From NCBI GenBank assembly GCA_964471155.1, contig CAYYFX010000001.1, positions 45,596 through 109,595 of the forward strand: 64,000 nucleotides of DNA. The letters run 5' to 3'. This DNA comes from an uncultured Gemmatimonadota bacterium. Its GTDB lineage: Bacteria; ARS69. Below, piece after piece: positions 12,001 to 23,025 of the stretch. Numbering within the stretch: position 1 is the stretch's first letter; every line of letters starts with the position of its first letter. A program made the position numbers.

Positions 12001-15000
12001 AGTTCTCGAAGTACGAACCCACCGACATCGCGGAGCAGCGCTTGACCTCGTAATCCGTGGCGACCTTCACGTAGACCGTGGAGTTGTCCGCCACGTTGCG
12101 CACGACGTAGGAGAGCGGCACGCCGTTCGTGATGCCGCCGCCGTCGGTGAGGAAGCGGGCCACCGCGTCCAGGTCGCCGTTGAACGTGGACAGGGCGAGG
12201 CCGTCGTCGCCGCCCAGCGCGAACACCTTGATGTTCACGTTCTGGAGGTCCTTCACGTACGTGCCGTCCAGGTGCGCCGAGCCGCCGGCCAGCGCCGCGC
12301 TGTACGACGCGTCGATGGACGCGCTGATGTCGCGCGAGCTGGAGGTGGACTCCACGAGCAGGTAGAAGCGGCGTCCGTAGGTGACGGAGGACACGTAGGT
12401 GGCCGGATCGCCGGGGCCGACGTAGCGGAGCAGGTCCGCCGGCGTCACGGTCGGCGCGAAGAGGTCGTCCAGCCGCGCGGGCAACCCGAAGCTCATCGTG
12501 TAGTACCGCTGGTTCAGCTCCACGAGGTAGCGGTTGTACGAGCGGTCCGTGCTGAACGACAGCTTCGCCTTCAGCTTCGTGGTCAGCGTGCGCGCGTTCA
12601 CGCCCATGTTCAGCGCCATCTGCTCCGTGGACTGCACTTCGGAGAAGTTGTACGTGAAGGCCGCCGGCACCTCGCCGGAGTTCTCCGCGATGATGTCGTT
12701 CATGGCCTGGATGACCTTGCCGTGCGTGAGCTCATCCACGTCCACGGACACGCTCTTCGAGCCGTTCACCAGGTCGATCGTGATGCTGCCGCCGGCGCGA
12801 TCCACCACGATGGGCTCCGGCGTGGCGCCGCCGAGCGAGGCGCCCCGGAGCAGGCTCCCCGGGTAGACCACCTCGGAGTTCGGGTCGAAGGTGGCGTAGT
12901 CCGGCGGGGCGTCGATCACGCTGCGGCGCTCGGTGGTGCAGACGTAGCGCGTGCCGTCGTCGCCGGTCTCCTCGCCCGAGGCGACGACGTCCACGGTCTC
13001 GGACGGGGTGACGGCCTCGTACCTGCCGCCGTACTGCACGACGCCGTCGAAGGTGCTGAGGTCCGCGTCGGGACCCATGCGATCGTCGCCGCAACCGGCG
13101 AGGAGGAGCGCGGCGGCGAAGGTCGCCAGGAGGCCGCGCGGGAAGGAGAGCGGGTTCATCTCGGTACTCCGGGTTGAGGGGTGGGTCGATCAGCCGACAC
13201 CCCCTAACGCCGGAAACCGCGGCGGAAGTGCCAATCCCGTCTGGCAGTCCCCACCTCATCGGCGCAACCCGTTGGTAGTGCGCCATATCACAGGCGCTGG
13301 CCCCCACGACCGACCGCCGCCTGGCGGGCACGCCAGGGTCCGGACGCTTGACGGAGACTTCGCCGGATGCGAACAGTTCGCCGTCCGGGTCGCGCGCCCG
13401 CAAGACCTCCTGCGGGAGATCGGGGAGCTGACATGACGACCATCAGCCTGCGTCTCGCGGACTCACTCCACCGACGCCTTCGCGAGGTGGCGCGGCGGGA
13501 AAGCATCTCCATCAACCAGTTGATCAACTCCGCGGTTGCCGAGAAGCTGTCCGCCCTGCTCACGGAAGACTATCTGGCGTCCCGTGCCGCCCGGGGCGAT
13601 CGCCGGAAGTTCGAGGGGGCCCTGGCCCGCGTGAAGGACACGCCGCCGGCGCCCGACGACTCGCTGCCGGATAGCCGGTAGCCCGGTACCCGTCCATGCG
13701 TCGAGAGAGGTCCACGGCTCGCTCCGGCCATCCTCTCGTCGAGATCCTCGCGGTCTTCCTGCGCCTCGGGCTCACGTCCTTCGGCGGACCGATCGCGCAC
13801 ATCGGCTACTTCCGGCGTGCGTTCGTGGAACGGCGGCGGTGGCTCACGGACGCCGAGTTCGGGCAGTTGCTCGCCATCTGCCAGTTCCTTCCCGGGCCGG
13901 CCAGCAGCCAAATGGGGTTCGCGGTGGCTCTGCTGCGCGCGGGTTGGGCCGGCGCCATCCTCGCGTTCCTTGCGTTCACCCTGCCGTCGGCGGCACTGCT
14001 CGTGGCGTTCGCCGGGCTCCTTCCGCACCTCGAGGGCGGCGCCGGCGCGGATGCGCTGCACGGACTGAAGCTCGTGGCGCTGGCGGTCGTGTCGCATGGC
14101 CTGCTCGGGATGGCGAAGCAGCTCACTCCGGACGTGCCGCGCGGGATCATCGCGGCGGTGGCGGCGGCGTTCATGCTGGCCGTGGGCGCGGCGTGGGCGC
14201 AGCTCGCGGTGGTGGCCTTCGGGGCAGTGGCCGGGCTGGTGGCATGCCGCAACGTCCCGCCCGTAGCGGACGCGGAGCTGCGCGCGCCCTTCGGCCCGCG
14301 CGCGGGCGTCGCGCTCGTGGTGGCGTTCCTCGCCCTGCTCGTCGGGATGCCGTTGCTCGCGCGCGGCGCGGACGGATTGCTCGCCGTGGCGGCCGCGTTC
14401 ACGCGCTCCGGCGCGCTCGTCTTCGGCGGCGGCCACGTGGTGCTGCCGCTGCTGCAGGAGACCGTGGTGGCGCCGGGATGGGTGTCCCGGGAGGAGTTCC
14501 TCGCCGGATACGGCGCGGCGCAGGCGGTGCCGGGGCCCATGTTCTCGCTGGCGGCGTACCTCGGCGCGCGGCTCCCCGGCGCGGACGGCGGGCTGCCCGG
14601 CGCCGCGCTGGCGCTCGTCTCGATCTTCCTGCCCGGGCTCCTGCTCGTGGCCGGCGTCCTGCCGCTGTGGCGCGAGGCGGCGCGGCACCGCAACGCGCCG
14701 CGCGCCATCGCCGGCGTGAACGCGGCGGTCGTGGGGCTCCTGGCCGCCGCGCTCTACGACCCGGTGTGGACCGGCGCCGCGCACGGCCCGTGGGACGTGG
14801 TCATCGCCCTCGCGGGCTTCCTCGTCCTCGCGAGCCGGCGCGGCGGTCCGATCCACGTGGTGGTCGGCTGCGTCGCCGCGCGCGTGGCGGCGGGGCTACT
14901 GCAGTAGCACCACCTTCTCGCGCGCGTCGATCCCGGCGCCGTGCAGCCGCACCAGGTACACGCCGCTGGCCGCGCGCTGCCCGCCCGCGTCACGGCCGTC

Positions 15001-21000: not shown

Positions 21001-23025
21001 GGTAACCGCGGAAGTGCCATTGCCGCAGGACCAGCGCGCCGCCTGCGTTGGGGAACCTCTCCCGCCCGAAGAAGTGGACCTGTCCGTTGCTCCCCACTGC
21101 GAAGTGTGACGAGCCCGCCGGCAGGTCCCCGATTGTGGACGTGACCGGGGTGGCCGCCTCCCAGGAGGCGTCCGGATCCGTCACGGCCTTGCGCGTGTGC
21201 CAGATGGTGGCGGTTGCCCGGTGGCGGAACATCACGTGCAGGGTGTCGCTCTCCGAGTCCTGGAGGGCGATGTTCGGGCTGTCGAAGCCCCGATTCACCG
21301 AGTCCGGAGAAATGATGTGAACCGCGCCCCACGTGGACCCATTCCGGTGCCGGAAGCCGACGCGCGGCTCGGTGCTCTCACCAAGCGGCTGGCCCGGATC
21401 CCAATAGAACACCTCCATCGCCACGTACGCGTCGTCGTCCGCACCCACCGCGATGTTCAAATCCGTCGTCCGATGGCCGGAGGTCGTGTCCGTCACCAAC
21501 TCGGCGCTCGCCCAGGACCCCGCGGGATCCCAGTCCGCACCGAGGACTAGGTAGTAGGCCAAAGCCTGGTTTCCGGCCGGAGTGTCGGGTGATTCCTGGA
21601 CGCGCACCAAGCTCTGCCAGGTCGTTGCGGGGGAGTGCCCACGCGTGCCGCTTCCGGAGTTGGGGTCGTACAGCGGGGGCGTCGCCTGCGTGACCTGCCC
21701 CTTCGGCTCCCACAGCCATCCGGCTCTCGCAAGCGAGACCAGCGTGAGTCCGGCAAGCACCGGCAAGCCCAGGCGGTGGCACCAACGTGCTCCCGTAGTC
21801 AGCATGGTCCTACCTCCTGGCCGCACGTGCGGTCGGAACGGGCGAGGTCGGTATGGTGTCCGGAGGCGCCGCGGTCGGCGCGACGGTCAGATTGCGAGGA
21901 GAGGAGAGGAGAGGAGAGGAGAGGAGAGGAGAGGAGAGGTCGTCCTCGGAGCCATTGCAGCACCCCCGATGTGCACGACAGATGGCATGCTACTTGGATG
22001 GCGCGCCCGCGTCAAGACAAGGCAGTCGTGCGCATTGTCGTCTTGCAATGAGCAGGGTGACTTTCGTCAGTTCTCCGCCGGGCGCCGGCGAGCCGCCCAC
22101 CCCTGCCCCGGTCCGTCCGGCCCCGGGGGGCGACGCGACGCCCGCCCACAGGTTAGAGTCCCGTGTCACGACTCCATGAGGAGCACCCATGGAAGACCCC
22201 CGCTGGCAACGCGTTCGCGACCTCTTCGCCGCCGCCGTCGAGCTCCCGGCGGAGGCCCGCGGCGCGTTCCTCGACGACGCCTGCGGCGACGACCCCGCGC
22301 TCCGCGCCGAGGTGCAGGCACTCCTCGCGGCCGACTCGCGCGAGCACTCCCTCCTGGACGCCGGCGCCGCCGAAGCCGGGTTCGCCGACCTCCTCCCCGC
22401 GGACGCCCCGCTCGAGGACACGGTGGTCGGGAAGCGCATCGGGCCGTGGCGCATCGTGCGGCCCATCGGCACCGGCGGTATGGGCGCGGTCTATCTCGCG
22501 GAGCGCGACGACGGCGAGTTCCGGCAGACCGCCGCGCTCAAGCTGATCCGCCGCGGCATGAACTCCGCGGAGATCCTGGCCCGCTTCCGCGCGGAGCGGC
22601 AGATCCTGGCACGGCTGGACCACCCGGGCATCGCGCGGCTCCTGGACGGCGGCATCTCCGCGGAGGGACGGCCGTGGTTCACCATGGAGTACGTGGACGG
22701 CGCGCCGATCGACCGGTACTGCGACGAGCACGCGCTGGACCTCGAAGACCGGCTGGGGCTCTTCGCCGACGTCTGCGACGCCGTCCGCTACGCGCAGCGC
22801 AACCTCGTGGTGCACCGCGACCTCAAGCCCGGCAACATCCTCGTCACGCCGGACGGCACCGTGAAGCTGCTGGACTTCGGCATCGCGAAGCTCCTGGATC
22901 CCACGGATGCGGGCCTCTCCACGAGCAGCGCCGGCGTCACGCGCACGGGCTCGCGCCCCATGACGCCGGGGTACGCGGCGCCCGAGCAGGTGCGCGGGCA
23001 GCCGGTGACCACCGCCACCGATGTC

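Follow-up and report, generated by a model that had tools for sequence, protein, structure and literature searches.

A recombining three-gene cassette of predicted surface proteins, headed by simple-sequence repeats, in a lineage of uncultured Gemmatimonadota

Four consecutive minus-strand open reading frames (ORFs), g1 to g4, occupy positions 14896-21805 of a 64-kb stretch of contig CAYYFX010000001.1 from an uncultured Gemmatimonadota bacterium (hereafter the window; ~72% G+C, with all coordinates being those of the window unless another locus is named). The original prediction read them as a four-gene operon of signal-peptide proteins headed by an AGGAG microsatellite. Do these genes form a single unit, what might their products do, and what is the significance of the repeat that precedes them? 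The answer favoured here, to which we assign a probability of roughly 0.55, is that positions 16472-22180 represent one of multiple copies of a recombining three-gene cassette in this Gemmatimonadota lineage; its products would be exported proteins of the cell envelope or cell surface, and its expression is probably switched or tuned by the simple-sequence repeat. The microsatellite, initially treated as a landmark, is probably the most informative feature of the locus, because similar repeats head four of the five cassettes of the lineage.

All four ORFs show the high GC3 signature of real genes. At each N-terminus a K/R n-region is followed by a hydrophobic core (Kyte-Doolittle >2.1) and an AxA-like site, the Sec signal peptides being judged by a simple rule-based check and not by a dedicated predictor. 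The start codon of g1 is the ATG at 21805, 7 nt 3' of AGGAGG. By these sequence criteria g1 to g4 are real genes for secreted proteins, as had been proposed.

The proposal that they make up one operon did not survive comparison with other loci, which were fetched through full-length relatives of g1 and homologues of g2. The order g1 (with its C-terminal tail), g2, g3 recurs at L001, L002, L008, L014, L015, L016, L019, L095 and L099, and a partial copy is present at L003, so that the cassette is known from no fewer than ten loci besides the window. The layout each time is a large tail-ending protein, a beta-helix protein of ~440 aa and a protein of ~185 aa, with spacing that is mostly tight or overlapping. 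Full-length homologues of g1 are few, numbering only five among 5.8 billion protein clusters. The fourth gene lies next to the cassette only at L008, the orthologous locus, and is missing beside the cassettes of L001, L002, L014, L095 and L099; conservation and tight spacing of all four genes together, as an operon of four would imply, were not found. The intergenic gaps measure 11 nt (g1-g2), 4 nt (g2-g3) and 148 nt (g3-g4), which agrees with the upper figure of the 6-148 nt first reported and corrects the lower one. Because g1, g2 and g3 are conserved together at the two short distances, whereas g4 is set apart by the long one, is missing elsewhere and lies outside the exchanged block described below, the unit is three genes plus one: as judged from these sequences, a rare conserved three-gene cassette and a separately conserved neighbour. 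No terminator-like site was found, and g4 may yet be co-transcribed with the cassette. The genes surrounding the cassette change from locus to locus (kinase, urocanase, EF-G, L,D-transpeptidase, RND pump), with no consistent transporter or regulator, and the cassette therefore moves as a self-contained module. At L001 (6890-12991) the g1 copy lacks its first ~125 residues and signal peptide, and begins 13 nt after the gene for a 1032-aa F5/8-type-C (discoidin) protein, an arrangement that could mean that the head was replaced, that the gene is split or that the copy is decaying.

The orthologous locus L008 comes from a metagenome-assembled genome (MAG; 'uncultured Gemmatimonadota bacterium', GCA_964571855.1) that holds at least four cassettes (L001, L002, L008 and L095). 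This locus is syntenic with the window through the kinase-TPR gene, cassette, g4, chromate transporter, cytolysin-like gene, YebC, permease and malic enzyme, and the flanks of the cassette are 89-96% identical at the DNA level. From window position 22180 to ~16472, in contrast, only short fragments align, at 67-80% identity. At the upstream edge of this variable block, homology to L008 ends at 22180, 9 nt before the kinase ATG; at the downstream edge, 16472 and thus ~70 nt short of the g4 ATG, sliding identity climbs from 45-65% to 95-100%. The encoded proteins follow the same division, with g4 95.8% identical between the two loci, g3 47% and g2 48.8%, and with g1 (1364 aa in L008) alignable only over the C-terminal 640 aa that comprise stalk and tail, at 41.8%. 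Judged by this alignment, L008 has a paralogous cassette in place of everything between the kinase start and a point ~70 nt upstream of g4.

Exchange has also taken place within cassettes. Allele P0002, from a third genome, is 22-52% identical to g1 over residues 1-450, 100% identical over residues 551-850, ~60% over residues 901-1000 and ~90% in the tail. Perfect identity in the stalk beside a divergent head therefore indicates very recent recombination between otherwise divergent alleles. The partners of P0002 are 85% (P0020, g2) and 86% (P0017, g3) identical to the window genes. In L095 the head of g1 is closest to that of L002 (45%) and the stalk closest to that of the window (45%), while the L001 and L008 copies are 88.6% identical in g3, 63% in g2 and 55% in g1. 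Such discordant similarity along the length of the genes, together with the block replacement, carries the signatures of whole-cassette replacement, mosaic recombination and head swapping. The existence of the cassette, its conservation, its replacement and its mosaicism are shown by these comparisons, and the structural and evolutionary parts of the picture are near certain.

The predicted microsatellite at the head of the genes proved to be a perfect tract (Tandem Repeats Finder, TRF, score 88, 100% matches). When perfect tracts of four or more copies of a 4-9 nt unit were sought, it was the only repeat of its class in the 64 kb, and four of the five lineage cassettes, all except L001, were found to carry a repeat that is likewise the only one in its locus (Table 1). 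Across 153 kb of lineage sequence these four were the only such repeats, and all of them lie within 400 nt of the g1 start (P ~3e-8); 854 kb of unrelated loci contained two. The L095 tract is interrupted by a scaffold gap, and an independent contig, like the scaffold, breaks inside it. On the coding strand each of the four units (CCTCT, ACCGC, TCCGCTC and GCCTC) is rich in C and therefore puts one GG per unit on the template strand.

The logic of the repeat is most readily seen in L002, where an ATG with a GGAGGGG Shine-Dalgarno sequence reads into the heptamer tract and, as assembled, the ORF ends after 28 codons. Removing one unit or adding two in silico gives a g1 of 1119 or 1126 aa, respectively, with a normal signal peptide. 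The tract falls exactly between the strong Shine-Dalgarno/ATG and the signal-peptide hydrophobic core; in sequence terms this is a classical slipped-strand frameshift ON/OFF design. The tracts of the window, L008 and L095 are non-coding: an extended g1 ORF that takes in the repeat was considered for each and is impossible at any number of units, and in the window there is no upstream ORF that could be fused to g1 at any repeat number. We propose that the window repeat is a slipped-strand switch or expression tuner of this non-coding type. A sigma-70-like match (TTGACG-17-TAGCAT, 22015-21987, minus strand) lies upstream of the microsatellite. A small upstream ORF (MPSVVHIGGAAMAPRTTSPLLSSPLLSSPLLAI, followed by a stop) at 21940-21993 on the minus strand reads through the microsatellite and stops just past the repeat; its translation is putative. 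In a search for upstream DNA motifs conserved among the cassettes, only the ribosome-binding-site context CAGGAGGTAGGA[TC]CATG was found, common to the window and L095. Taken together, the tracts make real phase variation fairly likely.

The largest cassette protein, g1, is modular and consists of a variable head and a conserved beta-helix stalk followed by a C-terminal immunoglobulin (Ig)-like domain. The stalk falls below the Pfam Beta_helix threshold (21.1 bits, cut-off 25.9), and AlphaFold2 (AF2) models a confident beta-helix over residues 470-790. The overall pLDDT of this model, built from a five-sequence alignment, is 48.8, with the head below 50, and a fold search gave no match at E <=0.001. 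Heads differ by cassette, being all-beta in the window, M6-metalloprotease-like in L008 and galactose-oxidase-like in L019. A BNR/sialidase-like region, which the original prediction had placed in g1, finds no confirmation. The head has a single Asp-box (STDDGVTW, at residue 397), and its BNR_2 match covers 28 residues at 17.7-20.3 bits (cut-off 31.4); BNR was matched by none of the seven heads homologous to it, the family profile retrieved no sialidase from the PDB, and Foldseek matches of the low-confidence head model to sialidases have E values of 0.01 or worse. A sialidase head was accordingly rejected.

The tails of g1 and g4 bear on the route of export. The g4 protein has a signal peptide, an unassigned N-terminal region of ~400 aa and a domain resembling the type A sorting domain of type IX secretion systems (T9SS) at residues 415-501 (14899-15159). 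When C-termini were searched with both FlgD_ig (cut-off 27 bits) and TIGR04183 (cut-off 23 bits), the two T9SS-type tails originally claimed for these genes were upheld for g4 on both models (60.1 and 30.1 bits), and for g1 on FlgD_ig only (29.8 bits, with 13.4 on TIGR04183). Among the homologues of g1, L002 (23.6) and L014 (23.2) pass TIGR04183, and L008 and L001 score below 23. Exactly five ORFs in the window carry such a tail, as had been foreseen, and three of these pass TIGR04183: g4, 8898-11444 (28.8) and 57764-59857 (27.9). The tail at 35411-36586 matches a local hidden Markov model only (28.6 bits). By inspection all five have a V[FYH][DN][VA][AT]GR[RL][VI] loop and K/R-x-V-x-[LIV] near the end. 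In the C-terminal domains (CTDs) of Porphyromonas gingivalis cargo, a beta3-beta4 loop with a conserved Gly (FDMNGRR in RgpB) and a basic residue in the last strand are needed for secretion (PMC11285876). Since these are predicted secreted proteins, two of which have T9SS-type tails, a cell-surface assembly is a reasonable reading, and the sequences make export through T9SS rather probable.

The second gene, g2, is the core conserved partner and encodes a signal peptide and a single right-handed beta-helix without a T9SS tail. Its helix is recognised by Pfam (Beta_helix, 69.7 bits) and by AF2 (pLDDT 94, pectin-lyase fold), so that the beta-helices predicted in two of the genes are corroborated, in g1 by AF2 though sub-threshold in Pfam. 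The g2 family has about 100 members, all of them unnamed. Across 78 homologues the conserved residues of the helix body are limited to an Asn/Thr ladder, Cys, Gly and Phe; over residues 100-345, apart from the Thr and Asn of the ladder, the only conserved polar residue is D146 (78%). The helix core of these homologues showed no conserved acidic or basic residue of the kind expected at a catalytic site, and this pattern weighs against a shared catalytic site. An AlgE-type DPH-type motif was not seen on reading the consensus, for which no dedicated motif search was run. The structural neighbours of g2 include epimerases, lyases, hydrolases, the adhesin PfbA and NosD, and this fold therefore does not discriminate between functions.

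The most conserved parts of g2 are its N-terminal cap and its C-terminal 80 residues, which end in a short tag (Table 1) where W423 and K427 are each conserved in 99% of the 78 homologues. Across the fetched loci the motif lies <=12 aa from the end of the ORF in 47 of its 51 occurrences. A looser form, C-G-x-V-x-V-E-x-x-[ST]-W-G-x-[IV]-K-x-x-[YF]-[RK]-stop, stands at the end of every g2 homologue and of smaller, unrelated secreted ORFs that are frequently arrayed in tandem, with occurrences beyond the window at L011, L016, L018, L031, L037, L048, L057, L070, L074 and others. A search for an NCBIfam model of the WGxIKxxYR tag gave no match and no paper on it was found. The tag could be an undescribed sorting or anchoring signal.

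The product of g3, the third gene of the cassette, is predicted to be a DNRLRE-type (CBM96-like) beta-sandwich that stands alone behind a signal peptide. It matches DNRLRE_dom (NF033679) at 27.7 bits (E 2.3e-6), below the curated cut-off of 34, and 58 of the 70 family members examined match at E <0.01 (best E 3.5e-12). The family comprises 153 representative clusters in 1.84 billion, nearly all of them stand-alone proteins of ~185-195 aa. Profiles of four and of 70 sequences retrieved no PDB match by which g3 could be assigned to CBM96 through a solved structure.

Table 1. Coordinates of genes, domains, spacers and repeats; positions are those of the window unless residues (res) or another locus are given
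Feature	Position	Strand	Description
g1	18428-21805	-	1125 aa; ORF call, GC3
g2	17109-18416	-	435 aa; ORF call, GC3
g3	16550-17104	-	184 aa; ORF call, GC3
g4	14896-16401	-	501 aa; ORF call, GC3
g1 signal peptide	res 1-28		
g1 variable all-beta head	res 29-450		no Pfam match
g1 acidic junction	res 436-444		SHDDDDPTP; divides head from stalk in window-type heads
g1 right-handed beta-helix stalk	~res 470-1000		
g1 C-terminal Ig-like sorting-type domain	res 1040-1125; 18431..18688	-	~85 aa; VFNVAGRRV and KTVLLR motifs
g2 extreme C-terminal tag	17112..17186	-	C-G-x-V-x-V-E-x-x-S-W-G-x-[IV]-K-x-x-Y-R, here EGCGTVGVEARSWGRVKGDYRTESR
g3-g4 spacer	16402..16549	-	contains downstream boundary of variable block at ~16472
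Divergent intergenic region, g1 / Ser/Thr kinase-TPR gene	21806..22188	.	part of variable block
Window repeat	21896..21939	-	(GAGGA)8.8 on + strand, (CCTCT)8.8 on gene strand; 91 nt upstream of g1 ATG
L008 repeat	L008 3696-3723		(ACCGC)5.6 on gene strand; 122 nt upstream of g1
L002 repeat	L002 9916-9974		(TCCGCTC)8.4 on gene strand; inside g1 5' coding region
L095 repeat	L095 5756-5965		(GCCTC), >=11 units on either side of a 100-N gap in the scaffold; 254 nt upstream of g1

A working model can be assembled from these parts. The g1 protein would present a replaceable head on a beta-helix stalk, be exported by Sec, and then be carried across the outer membrane and tethered to the surface by virtue of its T9SS-type tail. 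The genes g2 and g3 are invariably co-encoded with g1, usually at tight spacing, and their products would act together with it, most likely as a glycan-directed binding or processing complex that may be under diversifying selection. Whether that role is one of adhesin or lectin as opposed to enzyme is close to an even call, leaning slightly away from the former. Variation comes at three levels: whole cassettes are replaced between strains, paralogous cassettes recombine into mosaics (head swapping included), and the repeat of 5 or 7 nt that sits at g1's 5' end would change by strand slippage. Slippage could then generate a population of cells that show different combinations of cassettes, a form of bet-hedging against phage, grazers or predators, and changing substrates.

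Several observations weigh against this model. The window repeat cannot act on reading frame, and its promoter support amounts to the single consensus match given above. Roles as an anti-Shine-Dalgarno element or an HMW-like hairpin were tried and rejected, since minimum free energy (MFE) folds leave the repeat unpaired; the region has MFE z-scores of +2.4 and +1.5, that is, it is less structured than shuffled sequence. No repeat was found at the more distant cassettes L003, L014, L016, L019 and L099, and switching is therefore not intrinsic to the family, repeat control being a lineage-specific addition. The g1 tail falls short of the TIGR04183 cut-off, and Pfam searches of ~40 ORFs found no T9SS core gene in the window. 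Polysaccharide enzymes predominate among the best structural neighbours of g2, which leaves room for an enzymatic role. Finally, the comparison genomes are MAGs (both alleles being corroborated by independent Logan contigs), and repeat-length switching and interaction of the three proteins are each predicted from sequence.

A rival explanation is a secreted polysaccharide-degrading operon resembling a polysaccharide utilisation locus, in which g1 and g2 would be beta-helix lyases or hydrolases, g3 a carbohydrate-binding module, and strain variation a response to different substrates. CBM96, a relative of the DNRLRE domain that most g3-family proteins match, binds alginate, the L001 cassette lies among GH94, GH1, glucoamylase-like and sugar ABC-transporter genes, and the M6 protease-like and galactose-oxidase-like heads of some g1 proteins resemble enzymes. 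This explanation is nonetheless improbable, given that the g2 helix core lacks conserved catalytic residues, that PfbA and NosD are structural neighbours as good as the enzymes, that no transporter or regulator accompanies the cassette from one locus to the next, and that mosaic, multi-copy loci with a repeat at their head typically encode surface antigens and adhesins and not catabolic enzymes. Less probable still is that the repeats are incidental, as replication-slippage debris or recombination scars, and that the cassettes are expressed constitutively with gene turnover as the only real variation. The repeats do lie within the exchanged block close to its upstream boundary, their units are not alike in sequence or length, three of the four tracts lie outside coding sequence and showed no regulatory logic, and cassettes outside the lineage have no repeats. 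Yet the same relative position is occupied by four perfect and independent tracts (5.6 to at least 11 units), there are none elsewhere in the 153 kb, assemblies break within the L095 tract, and the L002 tract, lodged between Shine-Dalgarno/ATG and signal-peptide core, restores a full-length ORF on loss of one unit.

An alternative that concerns export alone is that the tails are generic FlgD-type Ig-like domains for attachment to surface or matrix, on proteins that leave the cell by a route other than T9SS. Pfam FlgD_ig outscores Por_Secre_tail for every tail, the first PDB matches are FlgD, and g1 and two of its homologues are under the TIGR04183 cut-off; the window's lack of T9SS genes points the same way, as does a 2016 TXSScan survey in which T9SS was confined to Bacteroidetes. 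Against this, g4 and two other window proteins do pass TIGR04183, the tails match the CTD segments of the PorU and PorZ models, and they are strictly C-terminal, stand behind Sec signal peptides and keep both the GRR loop and the last-strand basic residue. A later review, moreover, lists Gemmatimonadetes among the phyla with T9SS genes; literature on T9SS in Gemmatimonas or Gemmatimonadota yielded a mention at this review level only. A generic role of the tails accordingly seems rather unlikely, and phase-variable, recombining surface-protein cassettes remain the best overall reading.

It is instructive to set the cassette beside better known systems, although the hmw, opa and Pmp systems considered here are none of them homologous to its proteins. 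The opa genes of Neisseria have pentameric CTCTT repeats in the region coding for the signal peptide. They are the closest analogue of the L002 paralogue, where a pyrimidine-rich repeat again lies between the ATG and the signal-peptide core and unit number sets the frame, and they too form a multi-copy recombining family of surface proteins. Opa proteins, in contrast, are small beta-barrels of the outer membrane in a host-restricted pathogen, while the L002 unit is of 7 nt and the window repeat is non-coding. In genetic logic the closest analogue is the pair of Haemophilus influenzae loci hmw1ABC and hmw2ABC, which likewise exist as duplicated sets of three genes, the first encoding a large beta-helix surface protein and having a 5' repeat, in this case a 7-nt unit in the transcribed 5' region that sets the level of expression (PMC12721329). 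There is no sequence homology, however, HMW relies on two-partner secretion and a glycosyltransferase, and its repeat works through a 5'-untranslated-region hairpin and RNase III, whereas no hairpin is predicted at the window repeat. The chlamydial Pmp proteins (PF02415/TIGR01376) are a looser analogue, being beta-helix surface proteins that form a family of paralogues. Repeated FxxN and GGA-like elements occur in the g2 consensus, and distant g2 homologues have PF02415 matches and the JGI name 'outer membrane repeat protein'; the window g2 itself matches neither model, and Pmps are autotransporters.

Domain by domain the likenesses are again partial. Type A cargo of T9SS, such as RgpB of P. 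gingivalis and the CTD proteins of Flavobacterium, shares with the tailed window proteins a Sec signal peptide, an Ig-like C-terminal domain of ~80 aa and an FDxxGRR-like beta3-beta4 loop with its conserved Gly and last-strand basic residue, and g4 passes the model. The window proteins differ in belonging to Gemmatimonadota, in tails that are nearer to FlgD_ig (with g1 below the TIGR04183 cut-off), in the absence of a tail from g2 and g3, and in a secretion machinery that is putative. Enzymes of the pectin-lyase fold (AlgE4 epimerase, PL6, GH87, GH110, RbmB) are only 13-19% identical to g2, the family of which has no conserved catalytic constellation. The DNRLRE match of g3 spans the same region as a weak CBM96 match, and yet g3 is a stand-alone secreted protein and not a module of an enzyme, and the window copy falls under the curated DNRLRE cut-off.

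Other genes of the window deserve brief mention. A second variable slot lies between the cytolysin-like gene and yebC (window 8862-11444, plus strand; L008 14591-15832, minus strand). In the window it holds the gene for an 848-aa cohesin/dockerin/beta-helix protein with a T9SS-type tail, and in L008 an unrelated gene for 413 aa on the opposite strand with the same kind of tail. The adjacent gene at 11516-13189 (minus strand) encodes a fusion of Laminin_B with a thiol-activated (cholesterol-dependent) cytolysin domain (the latter matched in Pfam at E 3.5e-41), a family unusual for Gemmatimonadota, and is 96% conserved at the DNA level in the related MAG. On the other side of the cassette, two large Ser/Thr kinase-TPR proteins, one of which has a zf-HC2 anti-sigma motif at its N-terminus, and a PF07638-type ECF sigma factor are encoded close together (22189-25047, plus; 25961-26671, minus; 30332-32929, plus). 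The kinase gene divergent from g1 is kept at the orthologous locus L008 and was not found beside the other cassettes. Further away, 45213-45704 (plus strand) encodes an Xre/MbcA/ParS-type antitoxin (Pfam E 7e-16), and the next ORF is its presumed toxin partner.

Secreted beta-helix proteins with T9SS-like tails are in themselves ordinary, and the interest of the locus lies in a repeat-headed, hypervariable cassette family in a free-living phylum. Phase variation by repeats, combined with mosaic families of surface proteins, is textbook material for the host-restricted pathogens Neisseria, Haemophilus and Campylobacter; to our knowledge, it is barely documented in free-living environmental phyla. 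The locus offers a handle on three uncharacterised protein families, a testable case of T9SS outside Bacteroidota and a possible new C-terminal tag. The most far-reaching version, a true contingency system in which five or more three-gene surface cassettes, made up of three uncharacterised families, recombine, swap heads and are switched by repeats, with a new g2 tag common to many unrelated secreted proteins of environmental FCB-type bacteria, is a tentative proposal that we consider unlikely to hold in full. Were it to do so, it would be among the first examples of simple-sequence-repeat phase variation outside host-associated bacteria, and would add a new surface-sorting signal beside the T9SS tail. 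If the repeats do switch, it would mean that strong and fluctuating selection on the cell surface, whether from phage, grazers or patchy substrates, shapes the genomes of Gemmatimonadota as it does those of pathogens.

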